From the NCBI GenBank assembly GCA_964514455.1, contig CAZEWI010000001.1, forward strand, positions 1 to 40,816: 40,816 nt of DNA. Reading direction: 5' to 3'. The stretch comes from an uncultured Bacteroidales bacterium. Its GTDB lineage: Bacteria > Pseudomonadota > Alphaproteobacteria > Rs-D84. Positions 19,600 through 40,816 of this stretch are shown piece by piece. The stretch's first letter is position 1. Every line of letters starts with the position of its first letter. Under the pieces are notes generated by a model, which was given only the letters and a program-made list of their open reading frames with translations, was not told the DNA's origin and made no database searches. The position numbers were made by a program, and so were the translations under genes.

Positions 19600-20421
19600 T
19601 TGAAATATATACCAATTTCAATTTGTATTTTACTCGCTGGGTGTCAATCTTCTGACTACTCAGCGAGCGATGTTGATAATATATCTATGGGCTCTACTGG
19701 TGAATTATATGGTTATCAAGTAGATGTTTCGGATACCGATAAATATATGTTTGTAAAAAATAATAAAGATGATGTTATTCAGGTTAAAATTAGAGAAGTT
19801 GTAGAAAAACAACCTAGGAACTGGATTGAAAAAATGGAAAATTGTCCCCTTGATACAGTTAGAGAATGTCTAGTCTGGCTTAGAAAAGAACCTGTTAAAG
19901 AGACACTATATTTAGAAGACAATATTAAATATAATGATGTCAATTATGTTATAGAATATGATGAAAATATATCAGGACAAAAAAAAGAACTAAAAGGACT
20001 TGTTGAAAGATATAAACTTTTATTGAAATTATCACGAGTTTGTTGTGTTGAAAATATTTTGAACCAGATGGATATTATGAATATAGATAAAAATTTAATT
20101 TATAAGTTTTTAGAAGATGATGCTATGTTTTATAATCTTGGTTCTAGATGTATATTCACTAATTCTAATAAAAATATTGATGTTGAAAAAATAAATATGA
20201 TTGAATTGGCTGAAAATGCTAAAAGAAGTTGTGTCTGTAAAAATGCAAAAAAAATTCAAGAGGTTATAAAACCTTTTGATAGGGTTTATGCCGAAAATCC
20301 AAAATTTATGGATAAGGTATTTGTTGTATCTATAACTGATGGTTTAAACAGAACAAATCAATATGATATCAATTACGATATTAAAAACATTAAAAGACAA
20401 TTACAGTCTTGTGTAAAATAA
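19600..20421 (+). CDS. Hypothetical Cys-rich lipoprotein, 273 aa
   Basis: TTG start after AAGGAG; lipobox LAGC; eight mature Cys including CC and CxC. Confidence 0.8.
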   Translation: MKYIPISICILLAGCQSSDYSASDVDNISMGSTGELYGYQVDVSDTDKYMFVKNNKDDVIQVKIREVVEKQPRNWIEKMENCPLDTVRECLVWLRKEPVKETLYLEDNIKYNDVNYVIEYDENISGQKKELKGLVERYKLLLKLSRVCCVENILNQMDIMNIDKNLIYKFLEDDAMFYNLGSRCIFTNSNKNIDVEKINMIELAENAKRSCVCKNAKKIQEVIKPFDRVYAENPKFMDKVFVVSITDGLNRTNQYDINYDIKNIKRQLQSCVK

Positions 20422-25486: not shown

Positions 25487-26470
25487 TCATTTTTTAGTAG
25501 GGGTATAATCGTTAAGACACTCCTCAAACTCTAACATATCAAGGGGTAGTTCAGTTTGAAAATTTAGTTTTTCTTTTGTTATAGGGTGAATAAACTCCAA
25601 AGTATCTGCGTGTAATAATTGACCCCTATGTTCTTTCAAAAATTTCCAAAAGTCAGAGTTTATATCAATTTTCAACATATTATTTTTGTCTTTACCGTAT
25701 AAATCATCACCAATTAAAGGAAGTTTATTTGCAGATAAATGAACACGAATTTGGTGAGTTCTGCCTGTTTTTAATGTGCAATGAATTTTACTAACATTTA
25801 CCAATCCCCAAAAATCCATAAGTTCAATTTCGGTTTCTGCATATTTTCCACCTGTTTTTACCATACTCATTTTTTGGCGATTCTTAAAATGCCTGTCTAT
25901 ATTTCCAGTTATAGTCGCAGAGTCAGAATTTGGAACTCCCCAACAAAAGCAGGTATATTTTCTGATTAAATTATGCTCACTAAACATTTTTGTAAGTTCG
26001 TAATATGCTGAATCAGTTTTAGCAACGACTACAATTCCAGAGGTGTCTTTATCTATTCTATGAACGATTCCAGGACGATTTTCTCCGCCGATTTTTGATA
26101 GATGTCCATTAGTATGATGGAGCAACCCAGATGCCAATGTTAAATTGTCCAGATGCCCCGGACCTGGATACATTGTAAGTCCCCTAGGTTTATTTACTAC
26201 TATAATATCATCGTCTTCAAATAATATATCTAAATCAAGTTCTTTACCTTTTATATCAAGAGGTTCTTGCTCGGGAATATCAATTTCCAAAACATCATTT
26301 AACTTAGTTTTAATTGACAATTTATTTAGCATATTATTGTTTAATTTAATTTTATTTTGTTCTCCAAGATTTTGAATATTAGCACGAGAAATTTCAGGAC
26401 AAAAATCAGCAAGAACTTTATCTATACGTTGATTTATATATTCTTCATTTATAGTGAATGTTTTAATCAT
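25487..26470 (-). CDS. rluD: RluA-family pseudouridine synthase with S4 domain
   Basis: RIDKVLA (S4), VVNKPRG, RPGIVHRIDKDTSG, TGRTHQIRVH, GDDLYG, QLLHA. Confidence 0.93.
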   Translation of the reverse strand: MIKTFTINEEYINQRIDKVLADFCPEISRANIQNLGEQNKIKLNNNMLNKLSIKTKLNDVLEIDIPEQEPLDIKGKELDLDILFEDDDIIVVNKPRGLTMYPGPGHLDNLTLASGLLHHTNGHLSKIGGENRPGIVHRIDKDTSGIVVVAKTDSAYYELTKMFSEHNLIRKYTCFCWGVPNSDSATITGNIDRHFKNRQKMSMVKTGGKYAETEIELMDFWGLVNVSKIHCTLKTGRTHQIRVHLSANKLPLIGDDLYGKDKNNMLKIDINSDFWKFLKEHRGQLLHADTLEFIHPITKEKLNFQTELPLDMLEFEECLNDYTPTKK

Positions 26471-26472
26471 AT

Positions 26473-26982
26473 TTATTTCTCCGCTTCATTAAAAAACACT
26501 TCTGCCCTTGCAACAGAATCATTAGGTGGTGTTATTAAATACTTAAATTCAATATTTTGTTTTGAATCAATAAGAGGACTAGGAGGAATCATTGCAGATT
26601 GGTCTATAACTTCATTCTCTGCACTAAATAGTTTTATATTTATAGTCGGAATAGGCATAGTATTATTCGTAGGATTGGCAATTGTTCCAGAAACATTCAA
26701 CTTAAAAGAGCCGTCAAACTGAGGAACTGCCGTCAATTCGCTTAAAGTTATATAAAGATTATCAGAAACCCTAGATTTTATTACAAAAGCATAAATTGAT
26801 AAAACAATCAAAATAAATAATAAAATACAGATAATTTTAGGTTTTATGTTTGATTTTTTCGCTTTGTTTAGTCTTGTTTTTTTTTCAGTCCATATTTTTC
26901 CACAAACAACACACTCCAAAAGTTTTTTATCTTCTGGAATATCAAATTTAGTTTCACAATTAGGACAACAAACCGTTTTCAT
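26473..26982 (-). CDS. Zinc-ribbon / TM / DUF3426-like protein (ZitP-type architecture)
   Basis: CPNC-x14-CVVC-x3-W, basic linker, one TM helix, then V.GTIANPT....PIPTINIKL Ig-like domain. Confidence 0.8.
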   Translation of the reverse strand: MKTVCCPNCETKFDIPEDKKLLECVVCGKIWTEKKTRLNKAKKSNIKPKIICILLFILIVLSIYAFVIKSRVSDNLYITLSELTAVPQFDGSFKLNVSGTIANPTNNTMPIPTINIKLFSAENEVIDQSAMIPPSPLIDSKQNIEFKYLITPPNDSVARAEVFFNEAEK

Positions 26983-27101: not shown

Positions 27102-28085
27102 ATGTTAAAATTTGGAAAAATAGCATTACTACTAATGGTTTTATTACCAACTTCTGTTTATTCTAATTGGTCTAGACCTTATCGTAAAGATGATGGCGGA
27201 CGAATCTATATCTCGGCTAAAATTGGTGGAGTTGGCATTTTTTCATCAAAAATGGAGAATGAACTAGGTAAAGATTTTACTTCGGAATATATTGTTATAG
27301 AACCAACAACAAATAATTTTCTTATGGTCTCTCGTATTATTAAAGATTATGAATATAATTCCGACACAGCACTGGATACTCAAAATTTAAATCTAGGTGA
27401 TTCAAAACCAGAAGAAAAATTAAAAAGTTTTTCTTTTTATTCATCGTTGGCTCTTGGTTTTGTTGTTCCTGAGCACCCAAATTGGAGAAGTGAATTTTCT
27501 TGGGATCATATAGCGGAATTTAATTATGATGCTAGTCCTATGTTTAATCAAACAGCATATTATATTGACTCTAGTTCTGTTTTACATAGTTTTAATATAA
27601 ATACCGGTGCTATGACCTCTACAAATAAAATTGATTTGTATATGCTAAATTTTTATCACGATTTTTTTGATTCAAATATAAAAAAACCTAATGAATGGAT
27701 TCCTTATATTGGTGCTGGTATTGGTTATGCTAGTATAACTACAAAAATGCAACTTGTTGATCTATATGCTGATCTTAGTTATAATGCTGCTATTGCTGCT
27801 TATGGATACACACCAACAGATGTTTTATCACCAACAGGATTATTAGATTTTTATGAGTCTAGTTTGCAAAAAGGCAGTTTAGCTCTTTCGGGAATGTTTG
27901 GTTTTTCTTTTGGTTTTACAGAAAAAGCGTTCCTTGATTTAGGGTTAAAACTTACTTGGATTGATAAAATTCATTGGGGACTAACAGATTCTAGTTCATC
28001 AACAACTATTGGTAGTAAAAATATAATAGGTTCTGATTCAAATTTCTTAACATCAGCACATGTTGGTCTAAGACTAGAATTTTAA
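27102..28085 (+). CDS. Outer membrane beta-barrel protein (opacity/OmpA-TM-like, large loops)
   Basis: Signal peptide; strands YISAKIG, WRSEF, YMLNFYHDF, PYIGAGIGYA, LDLGLK, VGLRLEF with terminal Phe. Confidence 0.8.
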   Translation: MLKFGKIALLLMVLLPTSVYSNWSRPYRKDDGGRIYISAKIGGVGIFSSKMENELGKDFTSEYIVIEPTTNNFLMVSRIIKDYEYNSDTALDTQNLNLGDSKPEEKLKSFSFYSSLALGFVVPEHPNWRSEFSWDHIAEFNYDASPMFNQTAYYIDSSSVLHSFNINTGAMTSTNKIDLYMLNFYHDFFDSNIKKPNEWIPYIGAGIGYASITTKMQLVDLYADLSYNAAIAAYGYTPTDVLSPTGLLDFYESSLQKGSLALSGMFGFSFGFTEKAFLDLGLKLTWIDKIHWGLTDSSSSTTIGSKNIIGSDSNFLTSAHVGLRLEF

Positions 28086-30157: not shown

Positions 30158-30186
30158 TTGCCATATTTTTTATAGCATTTTATAAT
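30158..30186 (+). promoter_or_regulatory. Near-consensus sigma70 promoter for the pilin-like trio
   Basis: TTGCCA (30158-30163), 17 bp, TATAAT (30181-30186). Confidence 0.65.
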
Positions 30187-30196
30187 GGCTGTATAA

Positions 30197-31705
30197 ATGG
30201 AGGGATTTTTGAAAAAGACTCAAAAGGGCGGATTTTTATTAGAGACTTTATTGATATTGGCTGTGATAATAACCATTATGCCATTCCTTGTTGAAAAATT
30301 AGCAGATAGAAAAATATTAAAAGAAAATATAGCAACAGAACAATATATTGAAACTCTATTCAATGCTTCAAAAACTTTTATTGTAGAAGGACAAGATACT
30401 CTTCCTGCTGGAAATCTTAATCTGGAAGGAAACTCTTTAAGACAATTTCTAGAACCATATGGACTACCTTCGGGATTTAATTTCAAAAGTCCATTAGGAC
30501 AAAATATTTCTCTTTTTATATCAAAAGGAGAAGACGATATCTTTGCTGTTTTATCTTTGTCAGATGGCAAAAAACATTTATCTCAAAACAGAAAATTAGA
30601 ATTAGCACTTAGAATAGGTTATTTTGCAGGTATGTTAAATGATGACGGAATGCTTGTTGGGGCGACTGGAGGTTGGGAAGAAAATCCAATAAAATATAGT
30701 ATGAATTTATCTGGAAAAAATATCTATATATTAATTCCTAATAGCCCTGATTTAAATGAAATGGTTTCTAGAAAAAAAATAGGATTTTCAACAGAACAAC
30801 AAAAAATGCATGTGAATCTAAATATGGGAAATAATGATATTTCCAGTGTTGCTATTTTTGAAGCAAATAAAGGAGATTTTGATTCTGTGGAAACAACAGA
30901 AATTAAAGTCACCGCCGATTCTGATTCCGGAATAGAAAATAAAATTGGCCAAATAATTGCTAAACATCTTATATTTTCAAACAATTCAGAATCTTCTGAT
31001 ACTGGTTTAACTATCAATAACTCGGGGCTTTTAATTGATAATTTAAGTGTAAAAAATATTGGAAAATCAGATAATCTGGGATTGAATTTATCTGTATCAG
31101 AAAAATTATCTGTCGCAAATTTTGAAACAACAGATATTAAAAATCTATCTACAATAGAAGTTAGAGAAAATCTTATTTCGGCTGATAAAGATTTAAATCT
31201 TATTGATTATAGTGGTGGAAAATTAGTTGTTCATAAACAATTAGTATCTCCTATTGTGTCAAATGAGTCTTCAAATGAGGATAATTCAGATTCTTTAACT
31301 TATATTTATTCCCCAATTGTTTATTCAGATTATATTGGTTTTTTTAATACTTCTTCAACCAGTCTTGCGGGAGATTATGAGACAAGTCCAATAGCAATCA
31401 TTGATTTTAATAAATCAACGATTGTTCCAGAAATAAGATCTGATAATTTTAATAATGATAATATAAAAATTCTGGAATCTATTGAAGGAGACTCTGAAAA
31501 CTCTGGATTTGCAAAAGAAATATCTTGTCAGGATTTTATAAAAAGTTTAGATGTAACATATAATTCTAAAAGTTTATCACAAAGAATGATTTGTTTGAAT
31601 GTAAAATATTACAGACTTTGGGTTCGTGCAAAAATAAAAAATTGTATGAATAAAGATAATAATAATACTTATGAGGCTTGTAAAATTGCAATTAAAGACT
31701 ATTAA
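30197..31705 (+). CDS. PilV/shufflon-N-like long type IV pilin family protein 1
   Basis: Class III signal QKG|GFLLE plus hydrophobic helix; GLPSGF, IG..AG...DG...GA.GGW and KMHVNLNMGNNDI match the PilV constant region. The true start may be TTG 30209 (SD GGAGG). Confidence 0.75.
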   Translation: MEGFLKKTQKGGFLLETLLILAVIITIMPFLVEKLADRKILKENIATEQYIETLFNASKTFIVEGQDTLPAGNLNLEGNSLRQFLEPYGLPSGFNFKSPLGQNISLFISKGEDDIFAVLSLSDGKKHLSQNRKLELALRIGYFAGMLNDDGMLVGATGGWEENPIKYSMNLSGKNIYILIPNSPDLNEMVSRKKIGFSTEQQKMHVNLNMGNNDISSVAIFEANKGDFDSVETTEIKVTADSDSGIENKIGQIIAKHLIFSNNSESSDTGLTINNSGLLIDNLSVKNIGKSDNLGLNLSVSEKLSVANFETTDIKNLSTIEVRENLISADKDLNLIDYSGGKLVVHKQLVSPIVSNESSNEDNSDSLTYIYSPIVYSDYIGFFNTSSTSLAGDYETSPIAIIDFNKSTIVPEIRSDNFNNDNIKILESIEGDSENSGFAKEISCQDFIKSLDVTYNSKSLSQRMICLNVKYYRLWVRAKIKNCMNKDNNNTYEACKIAIKDY

Positions 31706-33116
31706 ATTAGAAAAAGGGCTTACTATTTTTGAAGCAATACTTGCTATTGCTATAGTATTTTTAATTATACCTTTTGCATATAAAAAAATAAACTCCACCA
31801 CCCAAGAAATACAAGATATTTCTATCGCAAAATATATAACTAATTTTAATAATCCTATTTTGAATTATATTAAAATAAATCAAAATCTATGGGAATCTAT
31901 TGGAACTCAAGAAATTGATTCAAATGAATTTCTATCAAAACTTGAAGATTATGGCCTGAAAGAATCAGATATGAAATTTCAAAATTATATTACAAGTTAT
32001 TCTGTTATTATAAAAAAAACAACTAATGCAAGTGGTGGTTCTATTATAAATGCTTATTTAATTGTAGAATTTAGTAATGATTTTAGCCAAATCCGTTTAA
32101 CTAAAATAGCAAAGCAAATGGGTGCTTCAGCAGGAACTATTGGACCAGATGGAATCGTTCATAGTATTCTGGGAAATTGGATTTTAGATTCTTCTAATAT
32201 AAAAAATAATGTAATTGTTTATAAAGTAGATACAACAAATCAAACAGTTCAAAATATATCTTATTTACATAGACTTAAAATGGGTTCAAGAGAAGATCTA
32301 AATAAAATGGAAACAACCCTTTATTTTGGTGATGCTTTTTATAAATTCAATATTGCTTTTACAAAAGATGTTTTTGGAAACTTATTAAATATAACACGAG
32401 ATATCGCTACTTTTGTGTTAAATGCTGATAATATAGAGACAGATACGGTATATTTTTCTGATGGTGCTATTTTTAATCCTTTGGAAAAATCTAATCAAAT
32501 TTTATCAATACAAAATATTATTATAAATGGTTTAATTATAGGAGAAGATAAAAACTTAATTAAAACCAAAAATCTATTTGGGGCTATTGATTTAGATAAT
32601 GTATCAGAAATAAAAAAACAAACTTATCACCAACAAGGTAGTATAATTTCTAATACAACAACTTTCAAAGATAATGGAAAAATTATTGTTGGTAGGTTAT
32701 TAGATTTATCTGGAATTTCATCTTCCGAAGATGATATTGATTCTGATAAAACAGAATCTGAAAATGATATTATTTCAACTTTTAATTATATGGAGACAAA
32801 TTCCCTATATTTGAATTATTTAACAGCATCTAATAGTATAAATTTTACAAATGGAGTTATGATTTCTTCTGGTGGAGGCATTTATTTGTGTGCTTATGAA
32901 AATTGTGATTATACTAAAAATAATAAACAAAGATTTACACCTATTATTTCAGAAGATAATAATTTAGATACTTATTTTATGGATCTTAAAAAACTAACAA
33001 TATATTATAAAAACAATCAAGAACAAATGGAATCGGAAGACTATATCCTAAAATTAAATAATCTAAACACATCTAGCCCTAGTAATATAGGAAGAATAAT
33101 TGGAAATTGGAGATAA
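31671..33116 (+). CDS. PilV/shufflon-N-like long type IV pilin family protein 2
   Basis: Class III signal EKG|LTIFE; IAKQMGASAGTIGPDG...GNW; YLHRLKMGSREDLNKMETTL resembles PilV [18 protein letters not shown]. Exact start is uncertain. Confidence 0.75.
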   Translation: MRLVKLQLKTIKLEKGLTIFEAILAIAIVFLIIPFAYKKINSTTQEIQDISIAKYITNFNNPILNYIKINQNLWESIGTQEIDSNEFLSKLEDYGLKESDMKFQNYITSYSVIIKKTTNASGGSIINAYLIVEFSNDFSQIRLTKIAKQMGASAGTIGPDGIVHSILGNWILDSSNIKNNVIVYKVDTTNQTVQNISYLHRLKMGSREDLNKMETTLYFGDAFYKFNIAFTKDVFGNLLNITRDIATFVLNADNIETDTVYFSDGAIFNPLEKSNQILSIQNIIINGLIIGEDKNLIKTKNLFGAIDLDNVSEIKKQTYHQQGSIISNTTTFKDNGKIIVGRLLDLSGISSSEDDIDSDKTESENDIISTFNYMETNSLYLNYLTASNSINFTNGVMISSGGGIYLCAYENCDYTKNNKQRFTPIISEDNNLDTYFMDLKKLTIYYKNNQEQMESEDYILKLNNLNTSSPSNIGRIIGNWR

Positions 33117-33117
33117 T

Positions 33118-34398
33118 ATGAAAAAAGAAAACGGATCTATGCTTTTAGAATTATTACTTTTAACATCTATTATTATGATGATTTTTCCAATTATTTATAA
33201 ACAAGCAATTCAGAGAAATGAAAGATCAGTAGACAATGTTTTAGTTGAAGAAATGAATACTGTTAGTATGGCTCTTGAAAAGTATATTGAAGAAAAAGGA
33301 CCAAACTTATCTGGTTCTAATACTGGAAAAGTTTATTCTGTTGAATTAGAAGATTTAAGAGAATCTGGATTACCTGATTATATTAAAAATAATCAAAAAA
33401 CAGGAAATGAATATAAGTTAAGAATTGTAAAGAAAAACGATAAATCAGGAAAATCTTATTTATATGGAATGGTATTTGCTTCTAATCCAAAATTTACACC
33501 TCTTAGAACACGACAGATTTCACTTGCTCTTGGAGAGCAAGGGGGCTATTCTGAATCGGATATATTATATGGAAGTTATGGAACTTGGATTCAAAATGAA
33601 GGTAAATTAGGTTTAACAACTGATGATAACTCCATTATTTTGAATACTGACATTGTTAAAGTAAGGCCCGAATATCTTATGAGATTACACTCAGAAGATA
33701 GGTCTCAAAATACAATGTTTGCAGACTTAAATATGAATAATCATGATATCTTTAATCTTAAAAGACTTTTTGCAAATCAAGCAAACTTTAATCAAGAATT
33801 GACTACAAGAAACTTATTTGCAAAAAACTTAGAATATTTAGGCTTGGTTAAAATTTCTGCTTTATTAAAATCAGAATCTGCTGTTATCAATAATAATTTA
33901 AAACTTACAGGAGATGCATATCTTGATGTTAAAGATGCTATTTTATTGGAAAATACAGGATCTTTTAATGAAATAGAATTAAAGGATTTAAACATAAATA
34001 ATAATCTAACTATCCATGGAAAAATAGAATCAAAAGATACAAAATTACAATTATTAGTAAATGGAAATAGTTATTTCCAAAATAACACTAATGTAAAAGC
34101 AGCGGAAGTTGATTGTATTGGTTATGGATCTGTTGTTCAAAATATATTTACACAAGAAATAAAAGATATAACAAGCAATCAATATAGTTGGAATCTTTTA
34201 TATAAAACATTTTTTACTGCAGGCTCTGTAATTGTATCAGAATACAAGAATTTAATTTCTCTTACTAAAAGTAAAATATCAGAAATAGATGTTGGACAAT
34301 ATGAATTTAATAAGTTTCTAAATGATAATCAAGACATTAAATCTATTACAGATAACCTAGAAAAAAAATATTTAGAAATAGAAAATTTATTACAATAA
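33118..34398 (+). CDS. PilV/shufflon-N-like long type IV pilin family protein 3
   Basis: Class III signal ENG|SMLLE; LRESGLP, ISLALGEQGGY...GSYGTW, YLMR...NTMFADLNMNNHDI; start at ATG 33118 after GGAGA. Confidence 0.75.
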   Translation: MKKENGSMLLELLLLTSIIMMIFPIIYKQAIQRNERSVDNVLVEEMNTVSMALEKYIEEKGPNLSGSNTGKVYSVELEDLRESGLPDYIKNNQKTGNEYKLRIVKKNDKSGKSYLYGMVFASNPKFTPLRTRQISLALGEQGGYSESDILYGSYGTWIQNEGKLGLTTDDNSIILNTDIVKVRPEYLMRLHSEDRSQNTMFADLNMNNHDIFNLKRLFANQANFNQELTTRNLFAKNLEYLGLVKISALLKSESAVINNNLKLTGDAYLDVKDAILLENTGSFNEIELKDLNINNNLTIHGKIESKDTKLQLLVNGNSYFQNNTNVKAAEVDCIGYGSVVQNIFTQEIKDITSNQYSWNLLYKTFFTAGSVIVSEYKNLISLTKSKISEIDVGQYEFNKFLNDNQDIKSITDNLEKKYLEIENLLQ

Positions 34399-40762: not shown

Positions 40763-40816
40763 GCCACAATAGCTCAGTTGGTAGAGCACTTCATTCGTAA
40801 TGAAGGGGTCGCAGGT
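40763..40816 (+). tRNA. tRNA-Thr (CGT), 3'-truncated by the window edge
   Basis: GCCACAA-TA-GCTCAGTTGGTAGAGC D-arm; anticodon stem CTTCA/TGAAG with loop TTCGTAA. Confidence 0.92.

Follow-up and report, generated by a model that had tools for sequence, protein, structure and literature searches.

PilV, encoded by IncI1 and IncI2 plasmids (R64, TP114), is a minor pilin of the type IVb thin pilus and at the same time its tip adhesin, and it sets recipient specificity (PMC9045228). CofB, from the colonization factor antigen III (CFA/III) pilus of enterotoxigenic Escherichia coli (ETEC), and TcpB, from the toxin-coregulated pilus (TCP) of Vibrio cholerae, form tip trimers that start pilus assembly and bind secreted partners (PMC6048534, PMC9565799, PMC5207764, PMC10120004). 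Here we describe three consecutive genes, A, B and C, in a 40,816-nucleotide stretch of DNA (the window; positions 1 to 40,816 of contig CAZEWI010000001.1) from an uncultured bacterium of the order Rs-D84. They form a three-gene operon in an AT-rich uncultured alphaproteobacterium, and their N-terminal domains are related to that of PilV. The trio is an undescribed and widely conserved module of uncultured, partly genome-reduced Alphaproteobacteria that stands outside shufflon systems and type IVb operons, and it is probably an undescribed device for cell contact.

The proteins A, B and C have in common an N-terminal domain (N-domain) of ~220 amino acids (aa), which is followed by a C-terminal part of 200-270 aa that differs from gene to gene. 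Pairwise BLASTP over the first 210-250 aa revealed 23-26% identity with E-values from 1e-9 to 4e-6 (gene B matched A at E=1e-9 and C at E=3e-6); the likeness of the three N-domains exceeds chance, and the genes can be regarded as paralogues. An initial annotation of the window, made from its sequence alone, had listed three motifs as common to the trio. The two long ones, R..IA..G..(A/G)G....G...G.W and R......N.M...L.(M/F), are visible in the trio alignments, while the third, GLP, reads GLK in gene B. The same annotation had matched these motifs to the constant region of PilV, a match that was borne out by Pfam, tblastn and profile searches. The Pfam family that it had named, Shufflon_N (PF04917), matched gene A with 29.5 bits over aa 57-230, above the gathering cut-off of 27.5, and gene C with 24.0 bits, under that cut-off; gene B had no direct match in Pfam, and the trio proteins cover only the first two thirds of the model. 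A tblastn search of plasmids with aa 1-234 of C returned 17 records, and most of those listed lie inside genes annotated pilV (shufflon pilus tip adhesin), with ~25% identity, ~90% query coverage (92% for the best) and a best E-value of 1e-5. A profile of 36 family N-domains matched the PilV proteins of an Erwinia plasmid (E=3e-32) and of Bosea (E=6e-25), and the profiles of the A, B and C ortholog groups, from which the window sequences had been left out, each matched PilV on their own. An exhaustive search with hidden Markov models (HMMs) also retrieved, at ~1e-26, the protein P0082, which is a PilV encoded between a complete operon of the order TcpQ-PilM-secretin-PilO-PilP-ATPase-platform-PilS-SLT-peptidase and an integrase gene. 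Motifs common to the trio family and true PilV proteins include YI, G(Y)LP, R..IA..G..GG, G..G.W and YL.R...NTM..LNMG..DI. At the level of sequence, then, homology of the three N-domains to the PilV constant region is confirmed.

The three ORFs (open reading frames) follow one another on the forward strand with the lengths of 426-502 aa that had been reported initially, as the ORF list confirms (Table 1). Public assemblies that encode identical proteins call later starts, which give 498, 476 and 426 aa for A, B and C, respectively; the DNA favours these later starts for A and C, because TTG 30209 is preceded by GGAGGGA and ATG 33118 by GGAG. The start of gene B falls within the final part of gene A, and the coupling described in the initial annotation, a 35-nt overlap followed by a 1-nt gap, holds when B is read from ATG 31671; from TTG 31686 the overlap is 20 nt, and the gap between the stop of B and the start of C (33116 vs 33118) is the same in either case. 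The promoter-like site assigned to the trio, TTGCCA-17-TATAAT, is indeed present and is the best sigma-70-like match of the region. Its evidential weight is nevertheless small, because so AT-rich a region yields many consensus matches (46 such sites were found in this 29% GC DNA, against 36 expected from shuffles). The GC content of the trio matches that of its surroundings.

Table 1. Features of the gene trio; positions are those of the window.
Feature	Position	Strand	Description
Sigma-70-like promoter candidate	30158..30186	+	TTGCCA-17 nt-TATAAT, in the 55-nt gap after lpxB; 11/12 consensus matches
Gene A	30209..31705	+	498 aa from TTG 30209; mechanical ORF from ATG 30197, 502 aa
Gene A leader peptide	30209..30229	+	MKKTQKG; predicted prepilin cleavage after Gly (G/GFLLE, Glu at +5), as judged from the motif
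PilV-like (Shufflon_N-type) N-domain of A	30209..30898	+	alpha1 helix plus beta-sheet; Pfam, AlphaFold2, alignment
Gene B	31686..33116	+	476 aa from TTG 31686, or 481 aa from ATG 31671
PilV-like N-domain of B	31686..32400	+	BLASTP, group profile, alignment
Gene C	33118..34398	+	426 aa from ATG 33118; mechanical ORF 33100-34398, 432 aa
PilV-like N-domain of C	33118..33820	+	Pfam, tblastn, AlphaFold2, alignment

All three proteins begin with a prepilin-type signal. Read directly from the sequence, the N-termini are KKTQKG/GFLLE in A, KLEKG/LTIFE in B and KKENG/SMLLE in C (the slash marks the predicted cleavage point), in agreement with the class III signals reported initially; each has Gly at position -1, Glu at +5, ~20 hydrophobic residues and an invariant Pro. 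The Gly-x4-(Glu/Gln) motif with a hydrophobic stretch after a short basic leader recurs in 141 of the 152 family representatives, the residue at +5 being Glu in 108 and Gln in 29. The forms with Gln carry the N-terminus of group A, G/NFLLQALLAL; most relatives have Gln rather than Glu at +5 of gene A, while the window proteins A, B and C all keep Glu. Over hundreds of divergent sequences, Gly at -1, Glu or Gln at +5 and the Pro of the alpha1 helix are near-invariant, an argument that selection continues to act on the cleavage of the leader and on the packing of the helices. In a sequence search of the Protein Data Bank (PDB), the extreme N-terminus matched the pilin alpha1 of solved geopilins (E=4e-5); the matches were to pilin alpha1 segments only, with none to PilV, CofB or TcpB. 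Weak N-terminal matches to Pfam- or NCBIfam-type models were seen for ComGE (E=0.027) and GspG (E=0.13), and no family of the T2SSI/J/K or FimU/PilVWX type in Pfam or NCBIfam matched A, B or C.

AlphaFold2 was run on gene A with 58 relatives and on aa 1-240 of gene C. The N-domain of A was modelled at a pLDDT (the per-residue confidence measure) of ~96, with a helix of ~55 residues (7-60) followed by strands and short helices; the C segment (pLDDT 85.7, predicted template-modelling score 0.74) has the same layout of helix plus sheet, and in both models the helix, within residues 5-64, and the strands next to it reach a pLDDT of 90-97. The middle of protein A is beta-rich and of low confidence, and at its C-terminal end a region with four Cys is modelled with higher confidence as helices 456-482 and 488-496. 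The C-terminal part of protein C is likewise beta-rich, with a terminal helix. The architecture of the trio N-domains is predicted to be pilin-like, without a solved relative that would confirm it.

Word-based searches for homologues found 3, 2 and 1 matches only, and the family became apparent through the exhaustive HMM search, which yielded 1,530 cluster representatives with a cut-off of E<=1e-3, of which 570 also reached E<=1e-10 (clusters counted at 50% identity, ~1,500 in all). The named relatives that were looked up are all labelled 'hypothetical protein', in metagenome-assembled genomes (MAGs) assigned to Alphaproteobacteria, Rickettsiales or Proteobacteria. Twelve loci were obtained from species-representative genomes in a search that used four gene C orthologues as its query; they come from gut MAGs, including Candidatus Enterousia (order Rs-D84), of goat, yak, sheep, horse, human and other samples. 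Every fetched locus long enough to show it contains three consecutive family members in the order A-B-C, so that the synteny check across related MAGs proposed by the initial annotation was strongly positive. Further trios were seen in loci L001, L005, L007, L025/26, L030, L034 and L035 and, under the consecutive accessions MBN2676110-12, in another MAG, and the order is kept in >15 genomes altogether. Orthology is also unambiguous: the window proteins A, B and C scored 250, 197 and 263 bits, respectively, against the profiles of their own ortholog groups and <=57 bits against the others, with profiles that were built without the window sequences and whose alignments extend through the C-terminal parts. 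We also considered whether these C-terminal parts might be repeats homologous to each other, which was rejected (hhalign probability <32%).

The neighbours of the trio differ from lineage to lineage. In the window it lies between lpxB and an LpoA-like gene, in L007 it is followed by efp, in Rs-D84 genomes it stands between a DUF4167 gene and a zinc-ribbon-RluD pair, and in L034 and L035 between ksgA and recO. Because its order is kept across at least four different housekeeping contexts, the trio is a self-contained, ancient A-B-C module. The initial description of an undescribed chromosomal cassette among housekeeping genes stands. The zinc-ribbon gene and a 155-aa gene were tried as obligatory partners and rejected, since both are missing beside the trios of L007, L034 and L035. 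In Rs-D84 genomes the zinc-ribbon/RluD pair and the 155-aa gene lie directly 3' of the trio. In the window the 155-aa gene is absent and the zinc-ribbon gene is found 3 kb from the trio on the opposite strand: an MJ0042-type zinc-ribbon membrane protein is encoded at 26473-26982 (-), with weak Zn_ribbon_4 and DUF3426 matches, and is followed by an RluD-like pseudouridine synthase gene at 25487-26470 (-). The pair is thus inverted in the window, with an outer-membrane protein gene, lpxA and lpxB between it and the trio.

The trio is under purifying selection. By the Nei-Gojobori method, five pairs of Rs-D84 genomes gave ratios of non-synonymous to synonymous substitution rates (dN/dS) of 0.03-0.23 for each of A, B and C, whether the N- or the C-terminal part was considered; selection on the C-terminal halves is as strong as on the N-domains. 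Because of this equal constraint, a conserved structural complex fits the data better than a fast-evolving adhesin head.

How does the trio compare with the described systems? It is similar to PilV in its homologous ~220-aa N-domain, its prepilin-type signals, its protein size of 400-500 aa and its distinct C-terminal parts. Yet PilV is one gene, whereas the trio consists of three diverged paralogues in a row, and it lies off any plasmid and outside any pil operon. Unlike plasmid PilV, the trio also has no shufflon segments or Rci recombinase, and its C-termini are conserved rather than switchable. No inverted repeat family resembling sfx (short AT-rich repeats at chance level only) and no recombinase were found at the trio; with neither sfx-like repeats nor an Rci-type recombinase, the possibility that the trio is itself a shufflon was rejected. 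With CofB and TcpB the trio proteins have in common a pilin-like N-domain joined to a large beta-rich C-terminal region, as well as the role proposed here of a three-subunit initiator or tip complex (PMC6048534, PMC9565799, PMC5207764). CofB and TcpB form homotrimers, however, whereas in the trio the three positions would hold three different gene products, and neither protein showed sequence similarity or significant Foldseek similarity to those of the trio. The initial annotation had compared the trio with the GspI/J/K complex. Like GspH/I/J/K and FimU-PilV-PilW-PilX, it does comprise several co-transcribed pilin-like genes with class III signals, but the analogy is a loose one: the trio proteins are 2-3 times larger, and those of the window all keep Glu at +5. 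GspK is a minor pseudopilin without Glu at this position, and gene A of most relatives resembles it in having lost that residue. The large type IVb minor pilins PilV, CofB and TcpB are the closer analogues of the trio.

The mechanism that we favour runs as follows. A prepilin peptidase encoded elsewhere would remove the leaders of A, B and C, and the mature proteins, being co-expressed, would dock through their alpha1 helices, probably in a 1:1:1 ratio, to form a complex that initiates a type IV filament or sits at its tip. Its counterparts would be the CofB and TcpB homotrimers found at the tips of type IVb pili, or else the cap formed by GspI/J/K; a protein A with Gln at +5, as in most relatives, would suit the subunit at the top of it. 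The C-terminal parts, which are conserved, would be exposed so that they can meet a partner cell, a host surface or a secreted ligand. That the trio encodes co-expressed minor pilins of the PilV type which act in this way, with their C-terminal parts displayed, is a proposal for which we consider the balance even. Within it, a heterotrimer in place of a homotrimer is a plausible and attractive idea, suggested by the three ortholog groups, the fixed gene order and the tight packing, and a place at the pilus tip as an adhesin is plausible as well. It is possible, though doubtful, that A, B and C form an obligate heterotrimer, derived from PilV, which starts or tips a minimal type IV filament, and that this filament is the main organelle with which genome-reduced, partner-dependent gut Alphaproteobacteria (Rs-D84 and relatives) attach to a partner or host; in a more radical version, the complex works without canonical type IV pilus machinery.

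If so, this would be the first case in which a single large type IVb minor pilin has been replaced by three specialised paralogues, and nature would have supplied a test of the way in which tip complexes are put together. The genomes of Rs-D84 are all smaller than ~1 Mb and lack most biosynthetic capacity, and a partner-dependent lifestyle has been proposed for these bacteria (PMC12306168). How the gut Alphaproteobacteria of the Rs-D84/Candidatus Enterousia group and their relatives attach is unknown (PMC12306168). The 4.2-kb trio is present in each locus examined, purifying selection on it is strong, and it derives from a pilus tip adhesin; for these reasons it is a concrete candidate for their contact apparatus.

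Several observations weigh against such a filament. The initial annotation had proposed a look for machinery genes elsewhere in the genome. Pfam scans of the window, together with precomputed annotations, covered 55 of the 61 kb of its contig and revealed no pilus ATPase, platform protein, secretin, prepilin peptidase or major pilin, and no ATPase, platform, secretin or peptidase gene lies within 10 kb of any trio. Similarly, when two sets of machinery proteins, 15 in all, of the type IVb operons of Erwinia and Bosea were used as tblastn queries, the 508 kb of fetched loci gave no match. The contig genes seen are housekeeping genes only (among them pnp, frr, uppS, bamA, der, efp, rodA, pbp2, mreC, lpxD, fabZ, ftsEX, lpxA, lpxB, rsmI, lspA and the pyruvate kinase gene). 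The C-terminal halves were modelled with low confidence, and their lengths vary independently among A, B and C in some lineages, which disfavours a simple intertwined stalk of three chains. Foldseek searches of the PDB with the full A model and the C N-domain model gave no significant neighbour, the pilin matches being weak and non-significant (Clostridioides difficile PilW, E=0.2; Salmonella Typhi PilS, E=3.2). Finally, where the survey of Rs-D84 genomes speaks of type IV pili, it does so for a different lineage alone (PMC12306168). As to the missing machinery, its absence near the trio is weak evidence, because minor-pilin operons of type IVa systems are often unlinked to the machinery genes, as is fimU-pilVWXY1E in Pseudomonas aeruginosa.

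These points also define the main rival to the tip complex, in which A, B and C would be orphan pilin-like proteins of the cell envelope. Held in the inner membrane by alpha1, they would build a complex in the periplasm or across the envelope that serves some purpose other than a pilus, such as envelope tethering or the docking of another apparatus, the pilus machinery having been lost or never present. We consider this rival unlikely. It would account for the absence of machinery from all neighbourhoods seen, for genomes of <1 Mb without reported type IV pili, for envelope and housekeeping genes as neighbours and for C-terminal parts as constrained as the N-domains; moreover, relatives of ~1000 aa edge flagellar rather than pilus clusters. 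On the other hand, it is difficult to see why Gly at -1, Glu/Gln at +5 and the Pro of alpha1 should be near-invariant if there were no peptidase and no packing of helix against helix. In addition, the published survey only implies that pili are lacking and does not say so for these genes, and a classic small pilin is kept near the trio in Rs-D84 loci. A second alternative, a short periplasmic pseudopilus that exports cargo rather than adheres, resembling type II secretion or the secretion by TCP and CFA-III, appears improbable. One relative is labelled 'pseudopilin PulG' by IMG, and type IVb minor pilin trimers do bind secreted proteins, as CofB binds CofJ and TcpB binds TcpF (PMC6048534, PMC9565799, PMC10120004); yet A, B and C match no family of the type II secretion system (T2SS) except, weakly, the N-terminus of GspG, no secretin or GspE/F gene is nearby, and the trio proteins are far larger than GspG-K. 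The last alternative, that an IncI-like plasmid or an integrative and conjugative element (ICE) once integrated here and left a decaying piece of its type IVb pilus and shufflon genes, could explain the homology to plasmid PilV but is effectively refuted by conservation and selection, with intact ORFs, a gene order kept in >15 genomes, dN/dS of 0.03-0.23, no sfx-like repeat sets or recombinase, a GC content matching the surroundings and housekeeping flanks.

The small pilin of the Rs-D84 loci is a protein of ~150 aa with two conserved C-terminal Cys, encoded ~2 kb from the trio beside the genes for an OmpA-like lipoprotein and OmpH. In L009 (4872-5327, -) it is a classic type IV pilin of 151 aa with the N-terminus MREQSG/RSLIEIIGVLAIGA (RSLIE start) and a weak N_methyl match. 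It occupies an equal relative position in L009, L010-L014, L016-L018 and L025/L026, and is a candidate major pilin; neither the window and its contig extensions nor L001, L007, L027 and L029 were found to contain it. The locus L018 belongs to a chromosome of 716,531 bp (OZ246409.1) with the Rs-D84 synteny OmpH, OmpA-like, small pilin, dnaX, trio, RluD, VirD4; given this alphaproteobacterial synteny, the record title 'uncultured Muribaculaceae bacterium' looks wrong. A gene for a coupling protein of the VirD4/TraG type lies 1-9 kb from the trio in two lineages (L001:6503-8749, -; L019 and the right end of L018), among housekeeping genes; the genomes concerned therefore encode at least part of a type IV secretion system.

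The relatives of ~1000 aa form a subfamily with a near-invariant N-terminus, QKG/SMMVEALAMLGLITMVTPILYKKAAERTTELQ, and a repeat-rich C-terminus with weak matches to DUF2345 (VgrG-like). Each is a single gene (L027:10001-13123 and L029:10001-13012) with a gene for a ~230-aa membrane protein 5' of it, at the edge of a flagellar cluster, fliL-fliM in one locus and fliF-fliG-fliN-flhA in the other; the genomes of L027 and L029 are related, and the flagellar link may be inherited synteny. Another large protein, of 960-1240 aa, is encoded just 3' of RluD near the trio in L009 (13351-16638) and, as equivalents, in L010-L014, L017-L019, L025, L026 and L030, and is absent from the window; it is secreted and very rich in Cys, has a membrane segment at its C-terminus and matches no family.

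Some further genes of the window and its contig may be mentioned. The one at 27102-28085 (+) encodes a protein of 327 aa with a signal peptide and the C-terminus ...GLRLEF, which has the look of an outer-membrane beta-barrel and a match, weak and below threshold, to the Adr adhesin family of Rickettsia (E=4e-4). At 19600-20421 (+) lies the gene for a Cys-rich putative lipoprotein of 273 aa without a Pfam match (cluster C11), which Rs-D84 loci keep close to lpxD. A tRNA gene at 40763-40816 (+; Rfam 38.5 bits) is truncated by the end of the window, which contains its 5' part. Finally, 3.7-5.9 kb past the right end of the window (L020:15771-17983), a GmrSD-like/HNH nuclease gene stands beside an EcoRI-type methylase gene, and this pair forms a small defence island in an otherwise housekeeping contig.

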